Assembly (NCBI GenBank): GCA_963733295.1
Contig: CAVTCS010000003.1
Coordinates: forward strand, 1,824,001-1,888,000
Source of the DNA: Vulcanimicrobiota bacterium
Lineage (GTDB): Bacteria; Vulcanimicrobiota; Vulcanimicrobiia; Vulcanimicrobiales; Vulcanimicrobiaceae
DNA: 64,000 nt
Reading direction: 5' to 3'
The translations under genes were made by a program, and so were the position numbers. A model generated the notes under the pieces. That model was not told the DNA's origin. It did no database searches and worked only from the letters and a program-made list of their open reading frames with translations. Positions 1 to 25,742 of the stretch are shown here, in pieces. Every line of letters begins with the position of its first letter. The first letter of the stretch is position 1.

Positions 1-1112
1 CTGAGAAGACCGTTGAGATGGCCTTGGGGAAAGATCGTGCGCAGGACCGCGGTCTGCTCGGTCAGGTTGAAATCGAGGGACTTCTGATCGGTTTGCGAGA
101 GGTCGATGTGCTTGTAGGAGTAACCCGCTTGACCCAACGGACCGGCCAGCGCGATGTCGCTGAGGTTCTTGACGGTGCTCGTGAACTTGTCCCAATCGTC
201 GGGCTTATTGGGATCCGGCGGCGCCAGGCTCGACTGAAAGAAATTGTTCTTGACCAGCTCGTAGCATTCCGAGACAGCCCGGTCGCGGTCCGAGACGCCG
301 GTTGCTCCCAGATCCGAATCTGTCGTGTACGACGAAACCTGGATGTTGATGACCTGATCCTCGATCAGCTTATCGACCGTCTTCTCGATGTCGCTCGAGA
401 CAAAGAGAAAACCGCCACCGTATTGAGTATCGAGATAAGTCTGCACGCGGTTCCAGTCGGCGGTGAGTTGAACGTGAAAGGCAGGCCGCAGGCCCAGGAA
501 TTGCAGCGAATAGATGACGGCGACCGGCGCCATCTCACCCTGCAGCGCCGCTTCGAGAACCGTCGCGCCGTATTGGTCGAGCTGGACGGAGAAGGTCGCT
601 TGATTGTCGCCGTAGAGCGCGGGCTTCGTCGCGTTCTGCACTTTGATCACGAATTGCGGCCCGGACGCGGCCGGCGCCATCACCGCCGTCGCGGCTGCGC
701 CGCTACTCGCGCCGGCCGGTCCGCCGGACGGCGCCGCCGCACCGCCCGTGGCCGGCGGACTTGCGCTTTGCGCTCCGAGGATCAGCAGGTCGACCGAACC
801 ATCGACGAACGTCACCGGCGAGAGCCGCGGTTGCCCGGTCAGCTTCGCCTGCTGCTGGAGTTGACTGCTCACTTCGCTCAGCGCGTCCTGATCGATCCCG
901 ATGTTGACGTCGAAATTGAGGAATCCGCCGGTTCCGGCAGCTCCCTCGTACTCGATCAGTTGCAGCTGTGGCGTGGCGACGTTCGTCTTCGGGTCGGTCA
1001 CCATCGTCAGGTGCGGCATCATCGGGAGGTAGTAGAACTGCAACGGATCTTTGTCGTCGGGGAAGACCGAGACTCCGTTGATCACAAAATACGGCGAGTT
1101 GAGGTACAGCAT
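1..1112 (-). CDS. Large uncharacterised protein, paralog 4 of the left-end operon (partial, runs off window)
   Basis: Absent from the ORF track because it is truncated. My translation from ATG 1112 gives MLYLNSPYFVINGVSVFPDDKDPLQFYYLPMMPHL...GGFLNFDVNIG...KPALYGDNQATFSVQLDQYGATVL, open to the window edge and collinear with the N-terminus of 1139..3436. Confidence 0.85.
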   Translation of the reverse strand, partial: MLYLNSPYFVINGVSVFPDDKDPLQFYYLPMMPHLTMVTDPKTNVATPQLQLIEYEGAAGTGGFLNFDVNIGIDQDALSEVSSQLQQQAKLTGQPRLSPVTFVDGSVDLLILGAQSASPPATGGAAAPSGGPAGASSGAAATAVMAPAASGPQFVIKVQNATKPALYGDNQATFSVQLDQYGATVLEAALQGEMAPVAVIYSLQFLGLRPAFHVQLTADWNRVQTYLDTQYGGGFLFVSSDIEKTVDKLIEDQVINIQVSSYTTDSDLGATGVSDRDRAVSECYELVKNNFFQSSLAPPDPNKPDDWDKFTSTVKNLSDIALAGPLGQAGYSYKHIDLSQTDQKSLDFNLTEQTAVLRTIFPQGHLNGLL

Positions 1113-1138
1113 AACGGTGCTCCGATCGCGAGCGGCGC

Positions 1139-3436
1139 TTAGGGTCCGGTGAGGACGAGGTCGGTGTCGCTCGACGTGACCGGCGCCTGCTTTACCACCT
1201 GCGGCGGCGTCGTCGCTAAGTAGTAGGTCGCCGTATACGTGTAGGCGGTCTTCGTCGGATCCTTCGTATAGAAGGTCCAGGTCGCCGGGGTTGCGCCGGT
1301 CGGCTTGAGCACGATCTCCTGCGCGAGCGAGAGATTGTTGGCGGTATCGGTGTATTGAAACTCGATCTGGGCCAGCTTGATCTTCGTGAAATCGAGCAGC
1401 GCCGGATCGGGCGTGACGGTGACGATCTTCTGGTTAGGCGGCCCGAAGGTGACGAGGCTCGCCGTCGTCGTCGTGCTCGGAATGTCCAGCGTCGTGTTGT
1501 CGGTGTTCGTTACGACGCCCGAGTAGCTGAGCTGCCCGTTGCTGCCGGGGATCACGAGGAACGTCCAGTCGTGGCTGCGGTTGGCGGAGCTGAACTGGTA
1601 TTCGGAAGCCTGCTGATAGTTGTAGGTGGTGTCGGCGTAGGTCATCTTCAGGAAGATGTTGTTGATTTCGTTCGTGAAGTCGCCCTCGGCGAGGAAGCTC
1701 ACCGTCTTCGGAATGAACAGATTGTTGATGAACAGCTCGCGCGTGTTGTCGGACTGCCAGGGCTTGACGACTTGCGTGCCGTCGGCTAAAACGTAGGTGA
1801 CCTGGTATTGGTACTGCTTGTCGACCGTCTTGAGCATGACGACGGCCATCGACGCCGTCCGATTGTTGGTATCGAACGAGAACTGACGGCTCACTGCCGC
1901 GCCGCTCGGATCGGGATCGGGATATTTGAGCGCGACTTGAACCTGCGGAACCTTCGTGAAGTCGACGTTGCTGACGGTGATGTTCACGAAAAGGACGCCC
2001 AAGGTTCCGACGTCGATCGTCGTCACGAGATCCTGCGTCGTGTAGACCGGCGAGGCATACGGCTGATTCTCGTCGACGTAATTGACCTTGAACGAGTAGC
2101 CGTAGTGCATGTCGCCGCCGGTCGTGTCTGAGTCGAACTTGAGAACGTCGTCCGGCCCGGTGAAGTGGAAACCTTCGACCGTGGGCGGCGTGCTCTTCGG
2201 ATAGGTGCAGTTGAGGTCGACGCTCTGAATGAGGAACTTCTGGTAGTCGGCGTTGACCATCAGCGTCGCGTGGATTTGCGCGAAGAAGGGGTCGTTCGCG
2301 TTGATCGTCTCGATATAGTTGCTGAAGTTGGGCACGTTCGGCAGCGTGCCTTGCTGGACGGTTTCGTAAACGATGCTGTCGTCTTGTTCATAGTATTCGT
2401 TGAAGTTGAACACAGCTAGGCTCGACTCGTTACGGCTGACGTTCTTCATCCCGTCGTCGCTGCGGTCCGATCCGAGGTCCGCGCCGGTGTTGCTGCCGGT
2501 CACGCCTCCGCTCGAGCTTCCCGAGGACGAGCCGGAAGAACCGTTGCTCGTCGAGCCGGTCGAACTCGCCGGGGTGCTGCTCGAACTCGAAGTTTGGCCA
2601 CTCGCACCGAGCACGTTCTGCGCTGCGATGTTGAGCTGTTGGAAACCCCAGTTCGTAAGGTCGCTTTGCATCTTGGCGACGTTGGGATCGGTCATGTCCA
2701 TGCCGGTGAAGTCGAACTTCACGCCGCCCGAATCCGATTGGATGAAAGCCTCGCGCATCGTCTCGTTCTCGGTGTTGTCGCCGCTGTCCCAACTGCCGCC
2801 GCTCTTGTTGATCGTCTGATAGAACGAGGCGAACTTGACGGCGTCGAACCAGACGTTTCCGGTGACGGGCGGCAGCGCCGCCGCGTAGCTGAGATCGTAC
2901 GCGATCTGGATGACGCCGCCCTGACCGCTGAGCGCCCCTTTCACGACCGCTGCACCTTCGGGTGAAAGCTCGGCCGTGAACGAGCAGATCAGCGAACCGA
3001 GCAGCGAAGGCTTGCCCGCGCTCTCGATCTTCGTGACGAGCGCTCCGCCGCTGTCGAGCAGCGTCAGCGAAGAGGTGCCCTTGATGAAGCTCGGCAGGGA
3101 GATCTTCGCGGTGGCGGGATTGCCTTGTCCGTCCTTGACGTTGTTGGTTTTGAGCATCGCGTCGAGTTGGTTTTGGAGCGCGCTCCTGGTCGTGTTCGAA
3201 AGGACGAAACACGAGTCGAAGATGAGGAAACCGCCGCCCTTGCTGCCGTCGGGACGGTCGACCGGCATCAAGTACTCGATGAAGTTGACGACCGGCTTGT
3301 TGGTCTTCGGGTCGATGCGGATGCTCGGCTCGTTGGGCATGACGTAGAAGATCGTCTGATCGACGGTATCGGCATAGGCCGTGACGGTCGAGCCGGCGCC
3401 GTCGCTGAGGTTGAGTGCGGGATAGAGCTTGAGCAT
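1139..3436 (-). CDS. Large uncharacterised protein (765 aa), paralog 3. Conserved N-terminal domain, Ser/Gly linker and about four C-terminal beta-sandwich-like repeats
   Basis: AAGGAG RBS. Motifs YADTVDQTIFYVMP, GGGFLIFD and KPSLLGS. Repeated Y-x-Y-x-x-x-Y/V units. No signal peptide. Confidence 0.9.
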   Translation of the reverse strand: MLKLYPALNLSDGAGSTVTAYADTVDQTIFYVMPNEPSIRIDPKTNKPVVNFIEYLMPVDRPDGSKGGGFLIFDSCFVLSNTTRSALQNQLDAMLKTNNVKDGQGNPATAKISLPSFIKGTSSLTLLDSGGALVTKIESAGKPSLLGSLICSFTAELSPEGAAVVKGALSGQGGVIQIAYDLSYAAALPPVTGNVWFDAVKFASFYQTINKSGGSWDSGDNTENETMREAFIQSDSGGVKFDFTGMDMTDPNVAKMQSDLTNWGFQQLNIAAQNVLGASGQTSSSSSTPASSTGSTSNGSSGSSSGSSSGGVTGSNTGADLGSDRSDDGMKNVSRNESSLAVFNFNEYYEQDDSIVYETVQQGTLPNVPNFSNYIETINANDPFFAQIHATLMVNADYQKFLIQSVDLNCTYPKSTPPTVEGFHFTGPDDVLKFDSDTTGGDMHYGYSFKVNYVDENQPYASPVYTTQDLVTTIDVGTLGVLFVNITVSNVDFTKVPQVQVALKYPDPDPSGAAVSRQFSFDTNNRTASMAVVMLKTVDKQYQYQVTYVLADGTQVVKPWQSDNTRELFINNLFIPKTVSFLAEGDFTNEINNIFLKMTYADTTYNYQQASEYQFSSANRSHDWTFLVIPGSNGQLSYSGVVTNTDNTTLDIPSTTTTASLVTFGPPNQKIVTVTPDPALLDFTKIKLAQIEFQYTDTANNLSLAQEIVLKPTGATPATWTFYTKDPTKTAYTYTATYYLATTPPQVVKQAPVTSSDTDLVLTGP

Positions 3437-3451
3437 GTCGTCTCCTTAGAG

Positions 3452-5290
3452 TTAAGAGCTTGCCGCGATCGGAACGGGAGCGGAAGCCGGCATCGTGCCG
3501 TCCGCGCCGAGCAACAATGGTTGGAACGGGGATAAAATCGGCGACCAGGCCGCGGCCGGCGCCGGCGGCGCCGCCGAACGGCGGTAGCGATAACCGGGAT
3601 GAAACGGTGACGCGGCGACGTAACCCCAGGTCGAGCTCGGCTGCATCGCGGTGAGCATCAAGAGATCCGGCGTGGCAGCGGCGTCCGCACTTTGTGCTTC
3701 GCTTTGCAGTTCGAGGACGAGCGCGCCGTCCGCGCTGCCCAGATCGGCCCGGACCTCGATCGTGTGCGGACCGTACTCGCGAAAGAGCGGCAGGTCGACG
3801 TTGATGCGGCCGGGTTGCGTCGGCGCAAGCGCGAGCGGCGCGCCGCCGTCGTTCGGCTGCGCGCTGAGTTGCAGCGAAGCATCGACGGCTTCGCGCGGGA
3901 TCCCGACCGAGAGACTCGGCGTCGCCGGCGTGAGCGTGAACTGTTGCGCCGCGATGCGGCCGCCGTACGTGTATTGCAGCGCAACGGTCAGCGTGGCGAG
4001 CGCGAGCAACCGATCCGCTGCGGTGACGTGCGCGAAGGTTACCAGAAAATCGTCCGCCGTCAGCGTGACCCACGCGTCGCTGCACGGACGGGCTGCAGGC
4101 GCGTCGAGTTCGACCGGCAGCGCACCCGGCACGGCAAGCAATGCGAAACTTCGCACGCCGTAGCCGAACGCTTCGCCGGGGCTCAAATGCAGAACGGCCG
4201 AAGCGCGGTCCGAGGGCTCCGCGAGCACGACTTGCACGCTCGAGCTCGCGGGGCGGAAGGGCGGGTTTGCGGCCAACTCAATGTTCGCGCCGATCGCCGG
4301 AACGCCGTTTCGATTGGGCGGCAGATTGGCCGTGACGTCGATGCTGTAGACGCCGGCCTCGAGCGGCGGCGCCACGATCTCTTTGACGAAGAAGTCGAGC
4401 CCGTTCTTGGCAACCGCGGCCCGCAGATCGCTCGTCGCGTCCAGCTCGAGCACCCATTGTCGATACGCGAGCGCGGGCAGGCTCAGATCCCACGCGATCG
4501 TGCCCGGCGTCAACTGCGCGACGTCGACGAAGGCGACGGTCGCGGGATCGCTGAGTCCGGGCGCCGCGGTCAGCGACGCGAACGCGGCGATGACGCGATC
4601 GGCCATGGCCTGCGCGAATTCGGCTGCGATCGTTCCGCTGGTTTTCAGCGGCAGAGCGGTGGCTTGCGTAAACGCTGCGAGCACGTCGGCGACCGCCATC
4701 GTGCGCGACGTCTTCCCTGCCAACAGCGCCGTCAGCAGTGCGACCGGGTCGAACTGGACCGAAGCCTGAGTGCGCTGCGCGACGCCTGCCGCGTCGAATT
4801 CGAGCCGCACGCCGAGGAGCAGCGAACCGCCCGCGAGCGAACCTTTGACCAACTCGCCCGCATCGGCCGAGAGCCGCGGCGTCCAGCGTGCGCCGTCCGG
4901 GCTGAGCCAGCCCAGCGGAACCGGTGTCAGGAGATCCGCCGCCGGCACGACTTGCGTCGTCGTCGGATAGAGGCGTGCGAAACCCGAATGAATCGAGAGC
5001 GGCTGCACGGTCGCGTCAGCGACGCTGGAGCGCACCGCAGCGAGCGCCGCATCGAGCGGAAAGTCCCAGCCGACCGTCAGGTCGAGCACCGCGTGCGAAC
5101 CGCTCGCCGTCAAGTCGCCCATTTGTTCGAACAGCTCGAGCAACACTTTGGGATTACCGTTCGCGTCGCTCGCGAGCGTCGCGCGCTGCGGTACCACGGC
5201 GTAGCTTCCGCCGGAGAACGGCGCAAACGTGGTGGCGGCGTCGCTCGACGCGAGCGTTGCAAAATCGGGCAAACCCGCGAGCGCCTCCAT
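3452..5290 (-). CDS. Large uncharacterised protein (612 aa), paralog 2
   Basis: Start directly abuts the upstream stop. Divergent version of the shared N-terminal motif (SYAVVPQRATLASDANGNPKVLLEL...AVLDLTVG) and C-terminal GYRYR. Confidence 0.85.
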   Translation of the reverse strand: MEALAGLPDFATLASSDAATTFAPFSGGSYAVVPQRATLASDANGNPKVLLELFEQMGDLTASGSHAVLDLTVGWDFPLDAALAAVRSSVADATVQPLSIHSGFARLYPTTTQVVPAADLLTPVPLGWLSPDGARWTPRLSADAGELVKGSLAGGSLLLGVRLEFDAAGVAQRTQASVQFDPVALLTALLAGKTSRTMAVADVLAAFTQATALPLKTSGTIAAEFAQAMADRVIAAFASLTAAPGLSDPATVAFVDVAQLTPGTIAWDLSLPALAYRQWVLELDATSDLRAAVAKNGLDFFVKEIVAPPLEAGVYSIDVTANLPPNRNGVPAIGANIELAANPPFRPASSSVQVVLAEPSDRASAVLHLSPGEAFGYGVRSFALLAVPGALPVELDAPAARPCSDAWVTLTADDFLVTFAHVTAADRLLALATLTVALQYTYGGRIAAQQFTLTPATPSLSVGIPREAVDASLQLSAQPNDGGAPLALAPTQPGRINVDLPLFREYGPHTIEVRADLGSADGALVLELQSEAQSADAAATPDLLMLTAMQPSSTWGYVAASPFHPGYRYRRSAAPPAPAAAWSPILSPFQPLLLGADGTMPASAPVPIAASS

Positions 5291-7428
5291 CTACGAGCCG
5301 GCCTGCACGTAAAACGAATCCTGATTCGAGGTGACCGGAGTGCCTTGCGTCGTTCCGGCACCGGTGATGACGTCGACGCGGTACGTGTAGTTCGACGTAT
5401 CGCCGGACTGCAGTACGTACGCTTCGACCGGCACCGAAAGCGAGATCGTCTGCGTCATCACGCCGTTCACGGCCGGAATCGACGGGTCGAAGTTCGCGGT
5501 TTGTCCGTCGGCGAAGACGACCTGCACCGCCATGATCGGCGGCGACGTGGCCGGCGCGGGAGCGCTGCTCGCCGCAGGAGCGGTGCCGGCGCCTACCGGC
5601 GCGGCGGTTGCGGCCGCAGCGAAGACCGAACTGAAGAGGATGACTTTGATGTCGCGCTTGACCGGTGCAACGACCTGGTTCTGCATGATCGCTTCCCAAA
5701 TCGCAGCCGGATCCGGCTCGACCTGAGTGTTGCTGTAGTCGAACTGCACCGAACACGAGCTGTCGATCGCCTGTCCCGCAGCCAGCTGCATGACGATCGT
5801 CAACGTATCCGGCGCGGGCGCGGCGCTCCCCGACGCGGCCGGTGCGCTTGAGACCGGCTTCAGATCGAGCGGCGGCGCAGGCTTGGTCTGTTGGGTCACG
5901 CTCGTCACCGGCACGCCGCCTTTGAGCAGCACGGCGGGCAAAGCGTCAACGTGAATCGGGCTCTCGATGCCGTTCTCCAGAACGACGGTCAGTTGGTTCT
6001 TGAGCGGATCGAACGAGGTCGTCGAGGCGAAGATGTCGCCGGCAAAATCGGAAGCGCTCGACTCGAACGGAATCTGTTCGACGTCCGAGCCGACCGTCAC
6101 GCTCACGACGCCGGAGAGCAGCTGCGTGACCTTTTCGAACAGCGCGGCGTAGACTTGACGGAACTGTGCCATCGAGAGCGCGAGCGAACACTTGATGCCG
6201 GCGGCGATGTCGATCTGAGCGCCGGCTTGCGCGACGAGGCCGGGCGCAGCCGACGGGTCGCTCGGAGGCACCGTCAGCGAAAGCGCCGTCGTGGTCGCTT
6301 CGAATAGACTGAGCGTGGGAAGCGCCGCCAGCCCGAGCGTCGTCTGAAGCGATTGCGCGGCGGCAGTCAGCCGGTTGGGGTCCCACACGGGAACCGCAAG
6401 AAAGGTCAGCGTGAAGGTGAGCGAGTTCGGATCGTCGCCGTTGGTGCTGACGACGATGCTCGGCGCGTGGGGCGGGGCGGGTTGCCGGCTGATCTTGAAC
6501 GAGTCCGGCAAGAAATATATCTGATTCGGTTGGTTGAGGTCTTGATAGTACGGATAGGAGCGCCCTTGCCAGCTGACTTGCTGGATGTTCCAGGATGGCG
6601 CTCCGCTTCCGATGTCGCTCAAACCGGCAAACACGTTCTTGTCGAGCACCGGATCGAAGCTGAACGGCAGCGTCGAATCGATGGCCGTGACCGCGGCACG
6701 ATAGAGCGGCTGCGCCGGCGGCGGCCCGGATGCCGGCGGAGGCACGGGAGTCGCCACACTGAACGAACGCCGCAGAATTAGTTTCGCTTGCGCCGCTTGA
6801 TCGGTCATCGCGTGATAGATCTGATCGCGGACCGCGGGATCGGTGACGACGAGCGAGAGGACGAGGTCGCCGGCCTCAGTCGTAGCCGTCCCGAAATCCC
6901 AGCTAGCGGCTTGTCCTTGCAGGTTCGCCGTCAACATGTAGCGTGTCGCGCTCGGAACGATCGCCGCGTTCCCTTGCGCGAGCGTCGTGGGACTGACGTC
7001 GGCGAGGTGTACCATCAGCGTGAAGCCCGCGGCGGTGGGCGCGAAGGTGACCCAGCGCTGCGAGGAGCCGCCGCTGCCTCGGGTCGCGACCGCGTACTGC
7101 TGCAGATAGTGTTTCTTCGTCGCGTCTTGCGGCTCTTCGAAAAGCGTCGAATCGACGGGCGGCGCGACGGGTGAAATCAAAGTCGGCAGCGCGAAACCGC
7201 TGCGCGGCTGCGGCGTGCCGAGGAACCACCCGAAGGACGGGTTGCGCATGTAGATGAGCGAGGGATTGAACGTGCTGCGCGTGGCCGAGGTCGCAACCGC
7301 GGTCGGAAACATCACGGGCCGCATAACGGCAGTCGGCGCCGTCACCGGCGCGGCTTGGGTAACCGGCCGTGGCGCGAACGTATGAAGCGTCATGAAGTTC
7401 GGCATGCTCAGTACCGCCCGTGGGCCAT
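5291..7428 (-). CDS. Large uncharacterised protein, paralog 1 (first gene of operon). Probable start 7428 with a frameshift, or 7405
   Basis: Internal YYQDLNQPNQIYFLPDSFKI motif and C-terminal NYTYRVDV. The GGAGG RBS (7435-7439) serves ATG 7428, which is out of frame with ATG 7405. Confidence 0.8.
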
Positions 7429-7469
7429 GTTCTGCCTCCGAGATTCGAGGAAGGACTGCTTCTGGGGTG

Positions 7470-7501
7470 ATGCTAGGCGACGGGGCGTCCTCAAAACGTC
7501 C
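7470..7501 (-). promoter_or_regulatory. Shared promoter motif copy 1: GGACG-ttttga-GGAC-N11-TAGCAT
   Basis: 11-bp-period direct repeat followed by a -10-like hexamer upstream of the paralog operon. Matches three other copies. Confidence 0.75.
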
Positions 7502-7652
7502 CGCAGCAAACAGCGCGACTGCGGCAGCATTGCCGGTCCCGCAACTTGAATTTGCGCCGATCGAAAATCCGGCCTTATCAGGAATCGCACACTTGCCTGA
7601 GGCGCACTCATGCGGAACGCCTGACGCGGATGTTGCAAGTGTTGACGGCGGA

Positions 7653-7668
7653 TGTGATCTGGAACACA
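7653..7668. promoter_or_regulatory. CRP/FNR-family-like operator TGTGA-tctgga-ACACA
   Basis: One mismatch to the TGTGA-N6-TCACA core, located in the divergent intergenic region. Confidence 0.55.
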
Positions 7669-7721
7669 ATTTTGCGCGACCACGCGCAGTAGGGCATCCG
7701 TCGCGGCGGGGTACTTCGTGA

Positions 7722-7761
7722 GAAAGCGCCGCGCGCGAAGTCGCACGCGGCGGGCGTTTTT
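7722..7761. terminator. GC-rich hairpin with flanking T tracts (terminator-like)
   Basis: Minus strand CGCCGCGTGCGA-CT-TCGCGCGCGGCG followed by CTTTCT. Plus strand followed by TTTTT. The transcript it would terminate is unclear. Confidence 0.35.
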
Positions 7762-7858
7762 AAATAGGCCGAGAGTGCAGCTCGTCCGACGTGCTCCTCG
7801 ATTGCGTGATCGCGCCTTGCGAGTCCGAAAGCGCGTGCAGCGATCCTAGCGCAGCATT

Positions 7859-7897
7859 GTCAAGGAATGGTGAAGAGATCGTCAAGGAATTTTCAAC
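7859..7897 (+). promoter_or_regulatory. 11-bp-period direct-repeat array GTCAAG/GTGAAG/GTCAAG/TTCAAC (OmpR-type box)
   Basis: Hexamers start at 7859, 7870, 7881 and 7892. Confidence 0.55.
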
Positions 7898-7956
7898 GTC
7901 GCTTTCGCGCGCGTGTTTCCGCTTGGAATGAATGCGAGCAAGCGACGAAACGGCGA

Positions 7957-7987
7957 GGACGTTTTCAGGACACTTGCGGTGTAGGAT
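7957..7987 (+). promoter_or_regulatory. Shared promoter motif copy 2: GGACG-ttttca-GGAC-N10-TAGGAT
   Basis: Upstream of the AGGAGG RBS of SLT-A. Confidence 0.75.
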
Positions 7988-8010
7988 GAGCGGGCAGGAG
8001 GTAAACCGCA

Positions 8011-8574
8011 ATGGCTTTATTGAGCGTCGCTCAAGTTGCTGCCAAGGGCGCACAGCAGCGCCCGGACTTTAAGATTTCGTGGCGCCCGGCGCTAGCCGCG
8101 TATGCGGCACAATATACGGCTGCAGCGAAGGCAACCGATCTCGTGCAGCCGTGCATGCTGGCCGCGATCGTCTGCCGGGAAACCGGCGGACAGAATATTT
8201 TGCAGATCGGCATGCCGCCCGGCGCCGGCTGCGGGGTCGGCTTGACCCAGATTACGAGCGGCGTCGACTGGAGCGTCTCGAGCGCTCCAACCTATCCGGG
8301 CTACGGACCGCTGCTCGACCCGCAAACGAACCTTAAGGTCTGCGCGGTCGAGTTTCTCGAACCGCTTCTCAACATGTTTTCCGACAATCACATCGCGGCA
8401 TTTGCCGCGTACAACGTCGGTGCGGGCAACGTGCAAGAGGAGCTCAAGGAAGGGGTCAGTCCCGACGCCTGGACGACGGGGCACGACTATGGGACGTCGG
8501 TCTTCGAGTCGTGGATCAACTTCACCGCGGCCTCGTGCGGCGACAACGTCGACTGGGCCAGCTACAAACCCTAA
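8011..8574 (+). CDS. Lytic transglycosylase, SLT/GH23 family (copy A)
   Basis: AAIVCRETGG (catalytic Glu), GVGLTQI, DPQTNL and AAYNVGAGNV motifs. AGGAGG RBS. No signal peptide. Confidence 0.85.
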   Translation: MALLSVAQVAAKGAQQRPDFKISWRPALAAYAAQYTAAAKATDLVQPCMLAAIVCRETGGQNILQIGMPPGAGCGVGLTQITSGVDWSVSSAPTYPGYGPLLDPQTNLKVCAVEFLEPLLNMFSDNHIAAFAAYNVGAGNVQEELKEGVSPDAWTTGHDYGTSVFESWINFTAASCGDNVDWASYKP

Positions 8575-8588
8575 TCCCGGAGGTCGGC

Positions 8589-9530
8589 ATGACCGGACAG
8601 ATCGGAAGCATTCTCGACGCCGCGCTCGTCCTCTCCGCGCTCTTTGTCGCCCTGAGTTGCGTTTGCTCGTTCGTCAACGAGCAGATCGCCGCGCTCTTGA
8701 GTTGGCGCGGACAAAAGCTCTACCTCGGCATCTTGAATTTGGTGAGCGGGACGGTGCCGCTGGTCGACGCCGTTTTTGCACATCCCTTGCTCGATGCCTC
8801 GTCAAACGACAAGAGCGGAATCTACCGCAAGAACTCGCCCAACCGGCCGTCCTACGTCGACGCGCGCAATTTTTCGATGGCCTTCTGGCAGAGCGTGCTC
8901 GCGGGCAAAGCCGCCCTGCCTGCCGGCTCGCCGGCTGTGGGCGCGGCCGCGACGGCCATCGTTACCGAGCCCAAAGTGTTTCTCGATGCGGTCCGCCAGA
9001 ACGCCCAAGCGATTCCCGACGAATCGCTACGGGCCAGCGTCTCCTCGCTGCTCGTTACCGCCGGCGACGACTACGAGAAGTTGCTCAAGGCCACCGATGC
9101 GTGGTTCAACGCCCAGATGGATCGCGTCTCGGGCTGGTACCGCCGGCAAACCCAGTACGTGCTGATCGGCATCGCCGCGATCGTGGTCATCGGCACGGGG
9201 CTGGACAGCATCGAGATCGGCAAGCATCTCTACGCCACGCCGATTGCGCTCAGCGCGGCCGCCGCGTCGATTCAGGGCGCCTTCCCGAACGGACAAGCCG
9301 ATCCGGCGAAACTGCAAGCGGCCTACACGACGGTGCTGGCGGGTGAAAACATGCAGCAGTTCCTTCACCCGCTCTTCCAAGATTTCGGCACGCACTATCC
9401 CGGCATGATCGCAACGTTAATCGCGCTTTCGCTGGGAACGCCGTTCTGGTTCGACGCACTGGGCAAACTCGTCAACGTCCGGATGGCCGGCGCCAAGCCG
9501 CCCTCCGCCCCTTCCTCTTCATCGACATAA
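8589..9530 (+). CDS. Conserved uncharacterised membrane protein
   Basis: GGAGG RBS before ATG 8589. Hydrophobic N-terminal helix, PSYVD, WFNAQMDRVSGWYRR and SLGTPFWFD motifs, about three TM segments. Confidence 0.8.
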   Translation: MTGQIGSILDAALVLSALFVALSCVCSFVNEQIAALLSWRGQKLYLGILNLVSGTVPLVDAVFAHPLLDASSNDKSGIYRKNSPNRPSYVDARNFSMAFWQSVLAGKAALPAGSPAVGAAATAIVTEPKVFLDAVRQNAQAIPDESLRASVSSLLVTAGDDYEKLLKATDAWFNAQMDRVSGWYRRQTQYVLIGIAAIVVIGTGLDSIEIGKHLYATPIALSAAAASIQGAFPNGQADPAKLQAAYTTVLAGENMQQFLHPLFQDFGTHYPGMIATLIALSLGTPFWFDALGKLVNVRMAGAKPPSAPSSSST

Positions 9531-9547
9531 CGTCAAGGAGAACAACG

Positions 9548-10333
9548 ATGGCTCTTTTAGAAGGTTCGGGCGACGGCAGTTCCGTCGACGCCGGCACGAC
9601 TGATCCCGGTCCGAGCGACGGTGGCGCCGTCGCCGGAACGACGACCACAACGGTAGCGACCGACGGATCGAGCGACGCGGGTTCGAGCGACACGAGTTCG
9701 AGCGACGCGTCGACCACCACGCCGAGCGATGCGGGTTCCACCGACGCGTCGACCGCCACGACAAGCGACGCGGGTACGCCGGCGGCGCCCCCGATCGACT
9801 ATTCGGTCATGGTCGCGATTCCAACCGGCATCAACGACGGGCTCAGCTCGGCAGATCAGGCCACGATGCTGAACGCGCTGGGAAATCCGGGAACGCCGGA
9901 TCCTGGCTGCGGGCCGTCCTCCGCGGCACTGCAAAAACTCATGAAGACCGCGAGCGTTGGGCCGTTCCGCGTCACCGGGCTCGGCCCCGCAGTCGACGCG
10001 CTCACCCGCGTCTTCGCTGCCGTGCAGAGCGCCGAACCCGCGCTCTACAACCTGCTCGGAACGCAAGGTATGCTGTGCGTGCGCTACGTGCGCGGCTCGA
10101 CGACGAACTTCTCGAATCACTCGTGGGGAACCGCGATCGATCTCACGATCGGCGGCGTGCTCACACCGCGCGGCTCGACGACCGTCTCGCAAGGGCTGCT
10201 CAGCCTGTGTCCGTACATGCACGCCGAGCAGTTCTTCTGGGGCGCGGGCTTTAGTCCGACGCCCGACGGCATGCACTACGAAGCGTCGAACGAGCTCATC
10301 ACGCAGTGGAAAGCGAACGGGAGCATTCCATGA
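9548..10333 (+). CDS. M15-family peptidoglycan peptidase with acidic Ser/Thr/Asp-rich N-terminal tail
   Basis: R...SNHSWGTAIDL and DGMHYE Zn-binding motifs. Confidence 0.85.
   Translation: MALLEGSGDGSSVDAGTTDPGPSDGGAVAGTTTTTVATDGSSDAGSSDTSSSDASTTTPSDAGSTDASTATTSDAGTPAAPPIDYSVMVAIPTGINDGLSSADQATMLNALGNPGTPDPGCGPSSAALQKLMKTASVGPFRVTGLGPAVDALTRVFAAVQSAEPALYNLLGTQGMLCVRYVRGSTTNFSNHSWGTAIDLTIGGVLTPRGSTTVSQGLLSLCPYMHAEQFFWGAGFSPTPDGMHYEASNELITQWKANGSIP
9668..9712 (+). repeat. 3 x 15-bp tandem repeat TCGAGCGACRCGNNN (SSDxx)
   Basis: Direct inspection of the sequence. Confidence 0.7.
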
Positions 10334-11484
10334 GCGCGGACGAAACCGTCGCGAGCGACGGCGGCGTAACAACCGACACTTCCCCGAGCGACACGTCGAT
10401 ACAAGACGCCGGCGCGGCGGACCCATCCGGCGCACCGGTTTCGAGTTCGAGCGACGCCGCGTCGAGCGACGCGACGTCGAGCGACACGAGCACGAGCGAC
10501 ACGACAACCGATGCGCCGAGCGGCACACCCTCCGCAACGGCGACGATCGGCGGCTGGAGCGACGCGGTTGCGGGCGGCTGGAACGGCGCCGAACGCGGCG
10601 TCGGCAACGTGCGCCGCATTCCGCTCCAAGGGCTCAAACAAGTCAATCAGGATCCCGCGCCCAATCCCGCGACGGCCGAATCGGCGGCCGGTCGCGCCAT
10701 CCTGATCGTCCCGGCCTCGCTCGATGCGTCGCAACCGGTCGACGTGCTCTTACATCTGCACGGGCACAACATCGGCTACCGGCAGCGCGTCGCATCCAAT
10801 CTGCCCGATGCGGCCAGCGTGCGCGACGTGCTCGTCGATCAGATCGAAGATCAACTCGACCGGTCGGGGCGCGCGATGATCGCCGTGCTGCCGCAAGGCA
10901 CGCTCGTCTCCGGCTTCGCACCGAGCGGCGCTCTGTTCGACTGCGACTCGTTTCTCGATGAGGTCCTGAGCGCAGCGGTCACGGCGGGCGTGTGGTCCGC
11001 GGCGCCGACGGTTGCGCGCGTCGTGCTTTCCGGGCACAGCGGCGGCGGCAACACGATCGGGCCGATGGCGGGCCAGTCCGGGCAGCCACGCCTCCCCTCG
11101 AAGATCGAGGCGATGTTTCTGTTCGAGGCGATCAACGGAACAAACGAGCTGGCGGGGATCACGACCTACGTCACCCAAAAGCTCAATGCCGATCTAGCGG
11201 CTTTGGGAAGCGCCTCCGATCAGCTTGACTACCTCAAATCGAGCTTCCGTTTCCGCGGTGTGTACAACACGCAGGACGACTTCTACGCAACCAACTACGC
11301 GACGCTGACGCAAACGATCGCGGCGTGGTTCGCCAAGAACGCGGCTGCGCTCGGCGGAAAAGGCTCGGATGCCTACAACGCGTTCGCAGCGAACTACGTC
11401 GTCGTCAACCCGAACCCGTTCGTCGTTCACGACGGCCTCTTGGGCTCCGGGAACTTGCTCCTCGCCTTAGGGACGCTGCCATGA
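10330..11484 (+). CDS. Alpha/beta hydrolase-fold protein with acidic Ser/Thr/Asp-rich N-terminal tail
   Basis: ATGA overlap with the previous gene. LLHLHGHN, GHSGGG nucleophile elbow and C-terminal His (VVHD). Confidence 0.8.
   Translation: MSADETVASDGGVTTDTSPSDTSIQDAGAADPSGAPVSSSSDAASSDATSSDTSTSDTTTDAPSGTPSATATIGGWSDAVAGGWNGAERGVGNVRRIPLQGLKQVNQDPAPNPATAESAAGRAILIVPASLDASQPVDVLLHLHGHNIGYRQRVASNLPDAASVRDVLVDQIEDQLDRSGRAMIAVLPQGTLVSGFAPSGALFDCDSFLDEVLSAAVTAGVWSAAPTVARVVLSGHSGGGNTIGPMAGQSGQPRLPSKIEAMFLFEAINGTNELAGITTYVTQKLNADLAALGSASDQLDYLKSSFRFRGVYNTQDDFYATNYATLTQTIAAWFAKNAAALGGKGSDAYNAFAANYVVVNPNPFVVHDGLLGSGNLLLALGTLP
10447..10506 (+). repeat. 4 x 15-bp tandem repeat (T/A)CGAGCGACRCNNNN (SSDxx)
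   Basis: Same unit as 9668-9712. Confidence 0.7.
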
Positions 11485-11831
11485 GCGTGCAATCGACCCA
11501 GACTAGTGTCGAGATCGAATGGGACGACAGCGTCGTCATCATCTTCTCCTTTGCCGGTGCTGACGGCAAGATCTATTGCGGTTTTCCGCACGTCGTGCCG
11601 GCGTGGCAGAATCAGACCGGAACTCAGACGCAAGTCTCGGCAACCGTGCAGAAAATTCAGCAATCCGCGATGCAGATCAGCGGCGACCCAGGGACATGGG
11701 TCGAGACGGTCAAGCAAGGCGCCAGAAACGGAAAGATCACCGTCGTCTACGACGATTCGACCAACACGAACTACACGACGCAGACCGGGCAGCCATACCA
11801 GCTGCAGATCTTGTACAGTCTCACCGGTTGA
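11481..11831 (+). CDS. Small hypothetical Thr/Gln-rich protein (116 aa)
   Basis: ATGA overlap with the upstream stop. Composition resembles the rest of the operon. Confidence 0.75.
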   Translation: MSVQSTQTSVEIEWDDSVVIIFSFAGADGKIYCGFPHVVPAWQNQTGTQTQVSATVQKIQQSAMQISGDPGTWVETVKQGARNGKITVVYDDSTNTNYTTQTGQPYQLQILYSLTG

Positions 11832-11866
11832 CCCCCACGGGCCGGCCCGTTTCGACGCGCCGCTAA

Positions 11867-13168
11867 CTAAAGCGAATGGGGCGCAGCCCCGAGGTGCGGG
11901 CGCGTGCCCGCGGCGGGAAGACCGGCGCGATGGCTTGGGATGAGGTTGATCCCTACGAGCGTCGTGCCGTTGGGCACGAGCAGGACGCCGCTATTGCTGA
12001 ACGCCATGCCAAGGAGTGACACTCCGCCCCCGCCCGCCGCGGGATTGAAACCTAAGGGCAGTGCACCGTCAAACTTTCCCGTGTTGAGGTCATACGCATA
12101 GAGTGCGCCTGAGTAGCCGAGGATGTAGATGGTATTTCCAACGATCAACGGTTGGTACTGGGCAGTGTCTTGAATGGACAACGTGGTGTACGTCGGAAGT
12201 TTCGCTTTCCAAATCGGCAAGAAGTGCTGCAAGTCGAAACAAACGATCGCGTATCCGAAGTAGTCTATGCGCACGCCGCGATTAGCTTGGAATGCGGGTG
12301 CCGTCGAAACGAGCTCTGGCTCGCTGAACGTGCCGAAGCGCGCGTTGAGTATTGCGAGATTTCCATCATCGACATCACTATCGGTCGCGAACAACCAACC
12401 GCCGTACACGATCGGCGTGTCGTTGCCTCCTCCCGTGTCGTTTCCGGTCCCGTAGTACCAGAGCGGCTGCCCGGTTGCGGCAAGAAAGGCATACGTTTGC
12501 GGACCGGCTCCCGTGACCCACACGACGCCGCCGCCGACCGCCGGCGTCGACTCGCCACCGATGAGCCGCGCCACCGAGTCCCACACCCTCTTGCCGGTCG
12601 TTTGGCTGTAGGCGGTTAGGTGATAGCCGGACATCAGGTACACCAAACCGTACGCTGCCACCGGTCCACCGCCGTAGGGCGAGGCATTTATCGCGGCGCC
12701 CCGCCACAGCATCGCGCCGGTCTGCGCATTAAAGGCGTAGAGCACGGGGTCACCGGCTGCGTTCGCATTCGAGAGGTTGGCGAACACCCTGCCGTTGTCG
12801 TACGCGAGTCCGGTCCACGAGTGTCCGGTCCCCTGTTGCCAGAGAATCGCGCCCGTCGAAACGTTCAGCGCGATGATCGAAAAATTCGCAATGACGAACG
12901 CTTCGTTCTGGACGACGATCGGCGCGGTTTGCAGCAGGGTGAATTGGTCTTGCCAGCTCCATGACGGCAAATTGCCACCGTCCCATGCGATGCCGCCGGA
13001 GTGCATCGTGTCGACCTGAAACGAGGGCGGCATTGAGGGGGGTGGGGGCAGCTGGCGGCTAAAAACGGGCCCCCCCTGAACCTGCGCGGCAGCGGGCGCG
13101 TGCGGAAAAGCGGCAATCGAAAGCAGGAGAAAAAGCCCAATAGGCGCGCGCAGAAAAGCCTTGCCCAC
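11867..13168 (-). CDS. Secreted PQQ-like (BamB-type) beta-propeller repeat protein
   Basis: GTG start with GGAG RBS, signal peptide ending AAA-Q, repeated A(L/F)nxxTGxxxW blades. Confidence 0.85.
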   Translation of the reverse strand: MGKAFLRAPIGLFLLLSIAAFPHAPAAAQVQGGPVFSRQLPPPPSMPPSFQVDTMHSGGIAWDGGNLPSWSWQDQFTLLQTAPIVVQNEAFVIANFSIIALNVSTGAILWQQGTGHSWTGLAYDNGRVFANLSNANAAGDPVLYAFNAQTGAMLWRGAAINASPYGGGPVAAYGLVYLMSGYHLTAYSQTTGKRVWDSVARLIGGESTPAVGGGVVWVTGAGPQTYAFLAATGQPLWYYGTGNDTGGGNDTPIVYGGWLFATDSDVDDGNLAILNARFGTFSEPELVSTAPAFQANRGVRIDYFGYAIVCFDLQHFLPIWKAKLPTYTTLSIQDTAQYQPLIVGNTIYILGYSGALYAYDLNTGKFDGALPLGFNPAAGGGGVSLLGMAFSNSGVLLVPNGTTLVGINLIPSHRAGLPAAGTRPHLGAAPHSL

Positions 13169-18057: not shown

Positions 18058-18073
18058 AAATGGGAACCGGAAC

Positions 18074-18526
18074 TTAGATGCCGGCGGGTGCCCGAGACGC
18101 GTCCGCCAAGGTCAAGGCCTTATCGCTTCGACGCGCAAGTTCGGTGAATCTTGGATTCCGTTCGACGTTGAACGAGAACTTATAGCCGAAACGTCGTAGC
18201 GTGTGCAAAAATGGTCCGCATTTTACGTCCTCCTCGATTTTCATCCGCAGGCGACGGATGTGAACATCTAATGTACGGTCACCTCCCTCGAAATCATATC
18301 CCCAAACTAGATCGAGAAGACGCTCGCGCGACATGGCTACACCAGCGTTCGAAGCGAGCGCGACCAACAGGGAAAACTCGCGCGGTTTGAGTTGAATCGC
18401 TTGACCTAACACGCGAACCTCTCTGGCTATTTCATCGATTTCGAGCGGTCCAAACTGCATAAGGAGTTGCGCGCTGTTTCGTTCAGGGCACGTCGGTAGT
18501 GACGGACGCATCAGGTATCGCTCCAT
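18074..18526 (-). CDS. Stand-alone OmpR-type winged-helix DNA-binding protein (no receiver domain)
   Basis: LKPREFSLL...SRERLLDLVWG...RTLDVHIRRLR...GYKF. Confidence 0.85.
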   Translation of the reverse strand: MERYLMRPSLPTCPERNSAQLLMQFGPLEIDEIAREVRVLGQAIQLKPREFSLLVALASNAGVAMSRERLLDLVWGYDFEGGDRTLDVHIRRLRMKIEEDVKCGPFLHTLRRFGYKFSFNVERNPRFTELARRSDKALTLADASRAPAGI

Positions 18527-18627
18527 TCTAGTCGCTTATTGAGTCGTTGACGACATGATCGATCGACGAATAAAATGATACATGAACTTAAAACGATTGT
18601 CTCTACCCACTTTTAGGTACGGAGACT

Positions 18628-23888: not shown

Positions 23889-25742
23889 CTAGACTGCCTG
23901 AATCGCGCGCATCACGTCGACCAGTCCCGAACCTTGAAACGCGCGGTCGCGCTTGAGATCCGTGGCGTTGTCGACGAACAGCGCTTTGACGGTCTCCGGC
24001 TGCCCGATGTACTCTCTGCGAATCGAAAGAAAGCTTGCGATGAGGCCCGAGACGTGCGGCGCGGCCATGCTCGTTCCCGAGTCTTCGCGGTAGGTGTAAC
24101 CGTCGGCCGGAACCGTCTTCGTCGTTCCGTCCGGATTCGAGATCGTCACGGGGAGGCGACTCTGCGCCGATGCGCACGAGATGATGCGCTCGCCCGGCGC
24201 GACAAGGTCGGGCTTCATGCGGCCGTCACCGGTCGGACCCTTCGACGAGAAGTACGAAATGCCGTACAGATGCGGCTCTTCGCGATGGGTCGAGCCGACC
24301 GTGATCGCCAGGTCCGCGTTCCCCGGATCGTTGATCGTTTGGGCGAGCGTTGCGGCCCAGCCGCCCAGATACGCACTGCTCAACGTGCCGTAGCCGGAAT
24401 TGCCGGCGGCCGTTACGACGACGACCCCGGAGCGGACGAGCCGGTTCACCTCGACGCACAGCGGACTCTGGCCGCAGGCAAACCACTTCGCGTCGAACGG
24501 ATACCCGACACTCAGGTTCACGCCCGCGATCACGATGCGGCGTCCGTACGAGTTCAGCTGTTGAATCGCTTCAAACGCGTCGATGATGGTCGAGACCTGG
24601 CCTCCACCTTGGTTGTCGAGAACCCGCATGCTCACGAGTTTGCATTTCGGGGCCATGCCGGTGATCACGGGCGGAAATTCGAGGGCGCGCTCGTCGGCGC
24701 CGGAGCCGTTGCGCGACATGCGCAGGATCGTCGCTCGCGGGGCGGGATCGGCCGCGGGCGGAGCGGTCCAGCTTCCCGCAATGATGCCGGCGACGTGCGT
24801 TCCATGTCCGAACGCATCGACGACGGCGCCCGGATCGTCCTTGGTCACGTCGGTCGACGGCGGCAGCGTTCCGCTGAAGTCGCGATGGCGTAGCGGACGC
24901 ACCGGATCGAGGACGAGGTTCCCATTTTCCTTGAAGTGCGGATGCGTGACATCGATGCCTGAATCGAGGACGGCCCAGACGATTCCGACCCCAGAGGCGC
25001 TGTAGGCGACGTGCGCCGCATCGGCTTTCACCGTTGCGATCGACTTCGTGATGAGACCCTGCACGCGACTGTCTTCCCAAATTTGGTGAATCGCGACCGG
25101 GCCGGTCCCCGGATTGCGATCCAGATCGACGAGCCCACGGATCTGTGCGCCGGTCATCGTCGCGAAGACGTACGGATGCGATGCGTCGTCGTTGGCCCGG
25201 TACCGGATCGGACTGCCCGACCGCGTGGCTAACACCTCGATGCAACGGACGACGCTTTGGCGTGCGGCCTGCGTCCCCGCCGAGTGCGCCGCGTTCAAGA
25301 CGATGATGCAGTCAAACGTGTCGTCGGGCGAGTTTCGGATCTTCGAGGCCAGCGGCTCGGAGATGATTCGCTGAACGAGCTCCTCGGGATTGAAGACGCC
25401 GGTCTCGTCCAAGATCGATTGGTCGCGACGGAACTCGACGGGCAGCCCCGCTTCGAGCTGCCCGTCGAGCGCGAGGACATGCGCGCCGGTCAGCGTTGCG
25501 TACAGATACGGAGAATCCGACTGTGCGCCGCTCCAGGTGATGCCCTCTGCCTGCGCGAGCTGGAGGGTCTGCATCGCCGATGCGACCTTCTGCAGCGTCG
25601 CACCGATATTGCCGTATCCGCTCGCCGGATCGACGTTTGCCGCCGGAACGACCCGCACCACGACCTTGAAGCACGCGGCCGGCGTCTGATGCGCGAGATC
25701 GCGAAGCGGCTGAGTGATCCGGCTTCCGTTGACGTCGTTCAT
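23889..25742 (-). CDS. S8 family subtilisin-like serine protease with N-terminal prodomain(s), no signal peptide
   Basis: Catalytic triad motifs VLDSG, HGTHVAG and GTSMAAPHV, plus AAGNSG. Confidence 0.92.
   Translation of the reverse strand: MNDVNGSRITQPLRDLAHQTPAACFKVVVRVVPAANVDPASGYGNIGATLQKVASAMQTLQLAQAEGITWSGAQSDSPYLYATLTGAHVLALDGQLEAGLPVEFRRDQSILDETGVFNPEELVQRIISEPLASKIRNSPDDTFDCIIVLNAAHSAGTQAARQSVVRCIEVLATRSGSPIRYRANDDASHPYVFATMTGAQIRGLVDLDRNPGTGPVAIHQIWEDSRVQGLITKSIATVKADAAHVAYSASGVGIVWAVLDSGIDVTHPHFKENGNLVLDPVRPLRHRDFSGTLPPSTDVTKDDPGAVVDAFGHGTHVAGIIAGSWTAPPAADPAPRATILRMSRNGSGADERALEFPPVITGMAPKCKLVSMRVLDNQGGGQVSTIIDAFEAIQQLNSYGRRIVIAGVNLSVGYPFDAKWFACGQSPLCVEVNRLVRSGVVVVTAAGNSGYGTLSSAYLGGWAATLAQTINDPGNADLAITVGSTHREEPHLYGISYFSSKGPTGDGRMKPDLVAPGERIISCASAQSRLPVTISNPDGTTKTVPADGYTYREDSGTSMAAPHVSGLIASFLSIRREYIGQPETVKALFVDNATDLKRDRAFQGSGLVDVMRAIQAV

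Follow-up and report, generated by a model that had tools for sequence, protein, structure and literature searches.

NctPC, in which an ABBA prenyltransferase domain is fused to an MstE-like cyclase domain, transfers a geranylgeranyl group onto tryptophan and then cyclizes it, and ChrPC carries out the same chemistry with a different prenyltransferase fold; both enzymes have been set in the context of ribosomal peptide lipidation (PMC13290415). MstE itself uses a DxD motif instead of DxDD and cyclizes a small aromatic C20 meroterpenoid, and its clade has been reported from a list of phyla much like that of the carriers described below (PMC12414744). Among the bacterial gasdermins, 43 of 50 are encoded beside proteases, and lipid modification is needed for toxicity (bioRxiv 10.1101/2021.06.07.447441). 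The subject of the present study is a seven-gene cassette, A to G, which joins five large proteins to a tryptophan-type prenyltransferase and a terpene cyclase, an enzyme pairing known to date only from small-peptide pathways. It lies across the left edge of a 64,000-nt stretch of DNA from a Vulcanimicrobiota bacterium (G000:C3:1824001-1888000), and this whole stretch is called the window.

Proteins A to E are related, signal-less and acidic, are 600-800 aa long and consist of a decorated beta-sandwich module with an FYYLP-type motif followed by Ig-like domains. F and G are new members of known families; the core of A to E, together with an extra protein H of other loci, and its pairing with a prenyltransferase and a cyclase match nothing in the libraries searched. 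No description of such a cassette was found in the literature searched, which lacks most subscription-journal papers. Here, we propose, with a probability of roughly 40%, that the cassette encodes an ordered hetero-oligomer which is matured by terpenoid lipidation, and in other lineages by proteolysis, and which acts on membranes or on the envelope.

Operon layout and the putative lipid enzymes F and G

Positions 1-7700 of the window hold four long open reading frames (ORFs) on the minus strand, those of genes D, C, B and A, with a promoter-like site farther upstream:

3..1112, minus strand: gene D, N-terminal 370 codons (ORF and translation; cut at the window edge)
1139..3436, minus strand: gene C, 765 aa; paralog of D and E; 10 Arg
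3452..5290, minus strand: gene B, 612 aa; remote paralog
5291..7405, minus strand: gene A, 704 aa; ~280-aa N-terminal extension, probable shared module and terminal beta domain
7856..7885, minus strand: promoter-like site ~450 nt upstream of A (consensus match only)

An earlier reading made from the letters of the window (the sequence-only reading) had described four tightly spaced, co-oriented genes in an operon of at least four. The spacing is confirmed, with gaps of 26, 15 and 0 nt between D, C, B and A, and the 18 kb to the left of the window (fetched as L003) extend the operon to at least seven genes. The start given for A, 7428, does not lie in the frame of the gene, which at its longest extends to 7669; we set the start at 7405 because the database record (P0126) is 704 aa long. 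The full-length D (G000:C3:1822770-1825112; 780 aa; P0001) is followed, left of position 1, by E (756 aa; P0002), by F (329 aa; P0003), whose start overlaps the E stop codon, and by G (312 aa; P0004), which overlaps F by 16 nt and is itself followed by a convergent gene. All intergenic gaps across A to G are 30 nt or less, and the window genes are the upstream part of a seven-gene minus-strand operon, A-B-C-D-E-F-G. Two promoter-like sites were found in the region against 0.1 expected from shuffles, and Rfam at its gathering thresholds gave 0 matches in positions 1-12000 of the window. The GC content is 59-60% over C and D (positions 1001-3000) against 64-68% over B and A (positions 3001-7000), a contrast that runs parallel to the Asn/Lys/Thr-rich, Arg-poor compositions of C and D.

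Relatives of the cassette were collected in a one-genome-per-species scan, which gave 181 stretches; the best 80 loci were retained, and all counts out of 80 refer to these. The presence of homologs was judged by BLAST of the window proteins against all ORFs of the 80 loci, and the resulting counts are lower bounds, many loci being cut by contig ends. C, D and E have homologs in all 80 loci; the corresponding numbers are 60 for B, 56 for A, 47 for F and 8 for G. Throughout, the genes keep the order A-B-(H)-C-D-E-F, H being an extra gene of ~455-500 aa that lies between B and C in many loci and does not occur in the clade of the window.

F is present in 44 of the 55 loci that reach at least 2.5 kb past E, or in 45 when L009 is counted; an apparent E-F fusion in L009 was rejected, since a frameshift merges the two frames. 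In many loci, F and the E stop codon overlap by 4 nt. The profile of the F family (35 sequences) matches the prenyltransferase CymD (PDB 6os3) with an E-value of 4.5e-6, over the C-terminal half, and tryptophan dimethylallyltransferase with 1.1e-3, while DMATS-type entries match it only at E 0.5. The Pfam family Trp_DMAT is matched by 14 of the 35 members (best 2e-5). By these profile comparisons, F is a divergent DMATS/ABBA aromatic (indole-type) prenyltransferase. Residues G64, P66, E68, K145, Y147, E184 and Y186 are invariant or nearly so in the family, and the conserved D-G-x-P-x-E and K-x-Y stretches resemble what we take to be the catalytic and diphosphate-binding motifs of such enzymes. 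An exhaustive profile search at E<=1e-3 placed 784 representative clusters in the F family, and among the 150 best representatives four are fusions of F to a cyclase (634-702 aa), two of the G type and two of a DxDD type.

The corresponding profile for G (7 sequences) matches 8paj (2.3e-34), 8pak (3e-33), 6ij1 (4e-26) and MstE (6sbb; 1e-22) over positions 5-310 of 316, and all 7 sequences share D92 and D94. By these matches, G is an MstE-like monodomain class II terpene cyclase. In other phyla, as a BLAST comparison of 380 flanking ORFs brought out, F is followed by a second cyclase type of ~290 aa, which carries an invariant DADDT motif (9 of 9 sequences) and shows a remote relationship to G (hhalign 86%, E 4.9e-6). 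A cyclase of either type adjoins F in 23 of the 43 F-bearing loci whose sequence continues for at least 1 kb past F, and F and G are coupled to each other and to E. There is no room for a precursor peptide gene in the gaps between A and G (at most 30 nt), a statement that covers these gaps and, at the other loci, ORFs of at least 60 aa.

Enzymes of these two families could also form a small-molecule pathway, in which F and G would make a prenylated, cyclized indole or tryptophan meroterpenoid and A to E would act as carriers, as a storage or export scaffold or in self-protection. DMATS-type enzymes such as CymD act on free tryptophan-type substrates, for which they are named. The substrate of MstE is likewise a small aromatic molecule (PMC12414744), and the F-cyclase fusions of ~640-700 aa are found standing alone. 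Nevertheless, the pathway would have to account for ~3,600 codons in five non-enzymatic proteins, and the conserved companions of the cassette include no prenyl-diphosphate synthase, tailoring oxidase or transporter. Moreover, A to E are intact in cassettes without F or G, and elsewhere proteases, which act on proteins, take the same place, between E and F or directly after E. We consider such a pathway quite unlikely.

Relatedness, folds and predicted assembly of A to E

The four window genes had been taken for paralogs with a shared N-terminal module, and the motifs quoted in support are present in the translations. BLASTP links D to E (1e-37, with 33% of the first 300 aa identical, and 4e-18 for the C-terminal half) and D to C (1e-12 in the N part and 3e-12 in the C part); between D and B, and between D and A, it finds no similarity. 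Comparison by hhalign of family alignments built from related loci joins the D family to B with 94.5% (E 7.7e-8, 440 columns) and to H, which starts with the shared module, with 97.7% (E 1.6e-12). For A, the values are 53% with B (E 1.4e-4, 348 columns), 51% with H (E 1.5e-4), 50% with E over the last domain only, 12.7% with D and 12% with C. Residues ~282-500 of A align to the shared module and its last 80 residues to the terminal beta domain; as its three weak matches share a consistent register, A is probably a remote paralog, and its N-terminal extension of ~280 aa is peculiar to its own family. Judged by these alignments, C, D and E are clear paralogs and B is a remote one, with A linked weakly. 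The shared module, described as N-terminal by the sequence-only reading, is internal in A. Profile-profile comparison, which had been named beforehand as able to overturn the common origin, retains homology between D and B and leaves it weak for A.

In composition, A to E are unlike F, G and the neighboring enzymes: they are acidic, Arg-poor, Ser/Thr/Asn/Gln-rich and Cys-poor, and they contain long low-complexity Ser/Thr/Pro/Gly linkers. Their Arg content is 1.3-4.1%, against 10.6% in F and G and 7-10% in nearby enzymes; their net charge is -16 to -32 and their Ser plus Thr content is 14-21%. The count of about 10 Arg in the 765 aa of C given by the sequence-only reading is exact. In line with that reading, no Sec/Tat signal or transmembrane helix is evident, with a maximum Kyte-Doolittle (KD) value of 1.83 over 19 residues and with N-termini, which are conserved and structured, judged by eye, no signal-peptide predictor having been run. 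Inspection by eye shows no C-terminal sorting motif in D or E.

As had been stated, the large proteins belong to no named family: Pfam, NCBIfam and PADLOC gave nothing significant for A to E, the D-family profile found 0 matches at E<=10 among the PDB sequences, and no profile search assigned the proteins to a characterized system. All 355 homologs of D in the protein collection are unnamed or 'hypothetical', and an ESM Atlas search with a stored D homolog returned only 'hypothetical' or 'Ig-like' clusters. An A-family profile search for domain fusions gave only close relatives without Pfam domains.

Modeled with AlphaFold2, D reaches a mean pLDDT of 77. Residues 395-780 are modeled as four beta-sandwich domains with pLDDT above 90, and Foldseek matches of the whole of D are dominated by generic tandem Ig-like arrays (adhesins, pilins and macroglobulin-type proteins). 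Residues 1-370 are modeled as a mixed module with pLDDT 60-85 and disordered low-complexity loops at 117-169 and 296-329. When this N-module was modeled alone (pLDDT 65), its best Foldseek match in the PDB had an E-value of 0.26, and its best VIA matches (Z 5.6 and 5.8) covered ~100 residues each of generic sandwiches across model residues 27-367. From the model, we take the N-module to have an Ig-like core into which large helical and strand segments are inserted. The structural search proposed by the sequence-only reading thus gave Ig-like matches for the C-terminal half of D and no clear match to a solved fold for the N-module. A gasdermin is absent among the listed Foldseek and VIA matches of the N-module, for which the model reaches a pLDDT of only 65. 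In BFVD, residues 1-375 of D have a single match at E<=0.001, an uncharacterized 417-aa Medusavirus stheno protein (A0A7S7YF07; E 4.7e-6; TM 0.34 and 0.31), which gives no functional lead.

Binding between subunits was addressed with a complex prediction for D residues 1-375 and E residues 1-470, each with its own alignment. The three runs gave ipSAE values of 0.72, 0.67 and 0.10 (median 0.67), the best of three controls being 0.00. The ipSAE mark is reached by 116 of 157 solved complexes and by 2 of 215 mismatched pairs, counts that apply only roughly here because own alignments were supplied for D and E. At least 33% of the contacts agree between the runs, and the partner pLDDT is at least 52. 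On the D side, the predicted interface comprises residues 4-15, 108-115, 181-200, 258-267 and the conserved strand 358-365; on the E side, it comprises 19-69, 97-105, the conserved 136-156 region and 425-458. The conserved edge strand of D is predicted to pack against the conserved K-P-x-L-x-G strand region of E. The prediction supports binding between the N-modules of D and E. Since the predicted interface is asymmetric and uses two different faces, ordered rows or rings are possible, and side-by-side packing of the N-modules would allow a hetero-oligomeric row or ring. The hetero-oligomer postulated by the sequence-only reading is supported by this predicted binding together with the fixed gene order in the 80 loci.

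Several paralogous structural subunits with an enzyme gene behind them that varies between loci (prenyltransferase and cyclase, proteases, patatin or PLD), and with N-modules predicted to pack side by side, are also what might be expected of a protein shell or lattice that encloses or scaffolds adjacent enzymes, as in encapsulin or microcompartment operons. However, neither sequence nor fold searches revealed any likeness to known shell proteins, and closed shells do not typically contain Ig-like arrays or long disordered linkers. A shell is very improbable.

Spread, proteases and the proposed mechanism

The cassette is carried by Eremiobacterota (Cybelea, Tumulicola), Acidobacteriota and Alpha-, Beta- and Gammaproteobacteria (several Lysobacter); by Paenibacillus, Cohnella, Microbacterium, Mycobacterium and many filamentous cyanobacteria; and by Bacteroidota, Chloroflexota, Verrucomicrobiota, Nitrospira, Myxococcaceae and two Methanosarcinales archaea. 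Culturable carrier genera include Lysobacter enzymogenes, Paenibacillus, Cohnella, Microbacterium and Larkinella. Among 40 relatives of the window genome (1 from its genus, 23 from its family, 5 from its order and 11 from its class), none has a D homolog at E<=1e-20. The identity of D is 61-66% in three Acidobacteriota loci (L008, L010 and L014, from Acidobacteriaceae and Acidobacteriota metagenome-assembled genomes), 64% in another Acidobacteriota locus (L030) and 51-57% in loci of Alphaproteobacteria. The cassette, which is unannotated, looks accessory and horizontally spread, because 0 of 40 relatives carry D and yet the gene order recurs across phyla.

Three plasmid records hold distant copies. 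One of them, on the complete 900-kb plasmid p2 of Pararhizobium qamdonense (L084; record positions 821721-836324), is a divergent copy with 27% identity to D; it consists of seven consecutive genes labeled 'hypothetical protein', among which no F homolog was noticed. A collection of 50,697 phage records gave no match to D. The actinobacterial cassettes (Mycobacterium L083:1-6456; Microbacterium L066, L070, L074 and L081) form two divergent operons, the second with extra paralogs, and A and B were not detected by BLAST in these loci. In the Mycobacterium locus, one A-like paralog carries two PG_binding_1 domains fused to its C-terminus.

A protease gene lies in or beside the cassette in 20 of the 80 loci (C14 in 9, S1 in 6, S8 in 4 and M48 in 1):

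between E and F: Peptidase_C14, one gene; six loci (Roseobacter, Paenibacillus, Flavitalea, Cohnella, Nitrospira, Mycobacterium)
directly after E, no F: Peptidase_C14, two genes; three Bacteroidota loci
between E and F, or between B and H: trypsin-like protease, sometimes with a small CarboxypepD_reg protein; six loci
just upstream of A in three loci and downstream of G in a fourth: subtilase; three alphaproteobacterial loci and one acidobacterial locus
after E: M48 protein; one myxobacterial locus

Other accessory genes after E occur in single loci, namely a patatin (L014) and a PLD protein (L083). The S8 gene of the window (23889..25742) was considered as a partner of the cassette and was rejected, being unrelated to the cassette-linked S8 genes. 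In Leptolyngbya sp. AN10 (L022:15205-18889), GPW_gp25, Baseplate_J and Tail_P2_I genes stand directly after E on the same strand, with no F, and are followed by DUF4159; within the 23 kb fetched, neither a sheath nor a tube gene was noticed.

Proteases of the caspase-, trypsin- and subtilisin-like classes are also associated with bacterial gasdermins, which raises an anti-phage or conflict system acting by cell suicide. Here, an idle cytoplasmic complex would be processed on a trigger and permeabilize the membrane of its own cell, a mechanism that overlaps with our preferred reading. The patchy, transfer-like spread of the cassette, its frequent occurrence in filamentous or socially living taxa and the patatin or PLD neighbors in single loci fit such a system. 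It should, however, be noted that PADLOC-DB 2.0.0, which dates from 2023 and does not cover newer systems, gave nothing for A to G at E<=0.01, the nearest being a chance-level match of D to a TIR effector model (E 0.029, 11.6 bits). Among 143 flanking ORFs from 31 loci, there were a few scattered generic PADLOC matches and no defense island; no conserved sensor NTPase or repeat domain accompanies the cassette, and the composition of A to E is unlike that of typical cytoplasmic proteins. This makes a suicide system a distinctly improbable explanation.

In the reading that we prefer, terpenoid lipidation matures the hetero-oligomer, and we infer the substrate of F and G as well as the location and activity of the complex as follows. 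The A to E subunits would be made in the cytoplasm as soluble precursors. F would then put a long prenyl group on a tryptophan or other aromatic residue of at least one subunit, and G would cyclize this group to give a polycyclic terpenoid lipid. The dedicated protease of other lineages (caspase-like, trypsin-like, subtilisin-like or M48) may add to the lipid maturation or replace it. Once switched by maturation, the complex would bind membranes or the envelope and perturb them, in the manner of the unrelated gasdermins, which are lipid- and protease-controlled pore formers. In the lineage of the window, a divergent gene cluster encoding an SLT-domain protein, a membrane protein and an M15 protein (described below) may help the complex to pass or breach the wall. 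The most specific form of the proposal holds that the large structural proteins A to E, and not short peptides, are the substrates of F and G; that a Trp-bound polycyclic terpenoid serves as a sterol- or hopanoid-like anchor made in the cytoplasm; and that this lipid, together with the proteases of other lineages, gates the assembly of a multi-paralog membrane-attacking complex common to bacteria and archaea. In this full form, we hold it to be doubtful.

Several observations weigh against lipid- and protease-controlled maturation. The first concern the enzymes. The F of the window has no Pfam match on its own, and its membership rests on the family profile for this reason; F and G could act on free tryptophan, indole or another small molecule; and 20 of the 43 F-bearing loci considered above have no cyclase by BLAST. 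F is also missing from 10 of the 55 far-reaching cassettes and was not found elsewhere in any of the five such genomes searched (5/5), so lipidation is not essential to the core. Nor is there a tryptophan column that separates F-bearing from F-less cassettes and is free of phylogenetic confounding. The second group concerns the proteins themselves. Their composition and the PG_binding fusion point to a life outside the cell, which is hard to square with cytoplasmic lipidation unless export or lysis follows. The model of the N-module is modest (pLDDT 65), with only generic beta-sandwich matches and no pore-former fold seen, and one of the three complex runs reached only 0.10, while paralogs may score well through their likeness to each other. 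The third concerns proteolysis: the cassette of the window has no adjacent protease, its genome has no Peptidase_C14 match and the nearest S8 gene is 16 kb off.

A candidate marker for F, the Trp at residue 216 of C (window ~2789-2791), was rejected, as it follows phylogeny and is blurred by neighboring tryptophans. This Trp, just before the conserved E-D-S-Y-x-E, occurs in 70% of F-bearing and in 1 of 11 F-less cassettes, and the three caspase-type Bacteroidota cassettes have Cys at this position.

The likely mechanism is changed by the conserved partners to the left of the window (prenyltransferase and cyclase) and by the proteases found elsewhere. If the proposal is true, the cassette is an unrecognized and widely transferred multi-subunit machine, the core family of which is unnamed in Pfam, NCBIfam, PADLOC and the RefSeq annotation. 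It would extend tryptophan prenylation with cyclization from small ribosomal peptides to whole proteins, would represent a new kind of prokaryotic protein lipid anchor and would provide a second, unrelated case of a lipid- and protease-controlled membrane-active assembly. Should lipidation fail, the F family with its 784 representative clusters and the cyclases would still be untapped terpenoid enzymes.

Neighboring genes and comparison with known systems

To the right of the cassette, on the opposite strand, lies a cluster that resembles a lysis or wall-breaching module:

8011..8574, plus strand: SLT-domain protein (Pfam SLT 3.9e-9), first gene of the divergent cluster, no obvious signal peptide; homolog in 1 of 80 loci
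8511..9530, plus strand, probable start near 8589: multi-pass membrane protein (U339) of no known family, no Pfam match, three 19-mers with KD >=1.6; homologs in 2 of 80 loci
9548..10333, plus strand: Peptidase_M15_4 protein (Pfam 9.9e-9) with a Ser/Thr/Asp-rich N-terminal region; homologs in 2 of 80 loci
10306..11484, plus strand: U392, no Pfam match, with a G-H-S-G-G stretch like a serine-hydrolase elbow (by eye); homologs in 2 of 80 loci

U392 and the M15 protein both begin with long Ser/Thr/Asp-rich regions. The sequence-only reading had the cassette divergently transcribed from a wall-hydrolase operon, and the orientation is as described for the SLT and M15_4 genes. The link itself is lineage-specific: when homologs were sought across the 80 loci, those of the SLT, M15 and U392 proteins were found in Eremiobacterota relatives only, and the proposed co-occurrence with the SLT, M15 and 8589 membrane proteins comes to 1, 2 and 2 loci, respectively. 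In two Eremiobacterota relatives, G is immediately followed by the M15 and U392 genes in the same orientation, and inverting the cassette once would account for the divergent pairing in the window. We regard the linkage as inherited and not recurrent, because the homologs occur only with close Eremiobacterota relatives and one inversion suffices. An M15 D-Ala-D-Ala dipeptidase gene lies upstream of A in two cyanobacterial loci; with the PG_binding_1 fusion in Mycobacterium, it hints at wall contact in other lineages.

These neighbors bear on the possibility that A to E form a released extracellular complex, which would assemble in the cytoplasm, exit where the SLT, membrane and M15 proteins locally breach the wall or lyse the cell, and act outside as a toxin-like, adhesive or surface structure; F, G, the proteases and the phospholipases would then be cargo or independent accessories. 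The acidic, Arg-poor composition and low-complexity linkers that set A to E apart from F, G and their neighbors fit this, as do the A-like protein with two PG_binding_1 domains, the position of M15 and U392 after G in the two Eremiobacterota relatives, the cyanobacterial dipeptidases and the variable enzymes after E (patatin in L014 and PLD in L083). Nevertheless, neither a secretion signal nor a secretion ATPase or translocon is a conserved feature of the cassette, and its carriers are monoderm, diderm and archaeal, so a single export route is hard to picture. SLT and M15 homologs are present in only 1-2 of the 80 loci, and the lack of a match in the 50,697 phage records argues against a prophage lysis module. 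F and G, in turn, are cytoplasm-like in composition and translationally coupled to E, unlike cargo toxins. A released complex is, on balance, unlikely, and the evidence for the extracellular or lysis-released location assumed by the sequence-only reading is indirect, namely the composition and the PG_binding_1 fusion.

Farther to the right in the window (14114-21249), a CN_hydrolase gene is followed by a TldD/PmbA peptidase pair, and the opposite strand of the same stretch holds a small Trans_reg_C regulator and an 873-aa AAA/TPR/LuxR-type regulator. Downstream of G (L003:9877-12563 and L003:6079-9081) are genes for two paralogous Cu_amine_oxidN1-domain proteins, an HlyD-type membrane-fusion protein and an outer-membrane efflux protein. 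In L025 and L027, the cassette likewise has MacB/FtsX-type ABC parts at its flanks.

The lipid-matured hetero-oligomer that we propose can be set beside several described systems. The closest in chemistry are NctPC and ChrPC (PMC13290415). As in NctPC, an ABBA-type prenyltransferase is combined with an MstE-like class II cyclase, and the F family shows both adjacent and fused forms, although F and NctPC were compared by description. The difference lies in the substrates, which are short precursor peptides in those systems, whereas the cassette has five proteins of 600-800 aa and no room for a peptide gene between A and G. For the individual enzymes, G resembles MstE (6sbb), 8paj, 8pak and 6ij1 in its full-length match, in its size class (~310-370 aa) and in the DxD acid motif; MstE, however, belongs to a cyanobacterial natural-product pathway (PMC12414744), whereas G stands in an operon of structural proteins behind a DMATS-like enzyme. 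F shares profile-level similarity in its C-terminal half with DMATS-type indole prenyltransferases (CymD, 6os3; Trp_DMAT), but it is very distant from them and constitutes a family of its own, which is tied to the A-E cassette in the loci examined.

The bacterial gasdermins offer a parallel in organization (bioRxiv 10.1101/2021.06.07.447441): a signal-less structural or effector protein is encoded beside proteases of interchangeable classes, a lipid is tied to activity and the spread is patchy. There are nevertheless distinct differences. No likeness in fold or sequence was seen, and the cassette has five to seven large paralogs against one gasdermin of ~250-300 aa. The palmitoyl group of gasdermins is self-added, whereas the terpenoid proposed here would be added by enzymes, and the cassette of the window has no protease. 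Finally, Ig-like pili and adhesins (CnaB repeats, PitA and T-antigen pilins by Foldseek) likewise have paralogous Ig-like subunits, and they share with the cassette a fixed order and a predicted edge-strand contact; the cassette, in contrast, has no signal peptides (by eye) and no sortase, usher or chaperone genes, and its subunits are three to four times larger.

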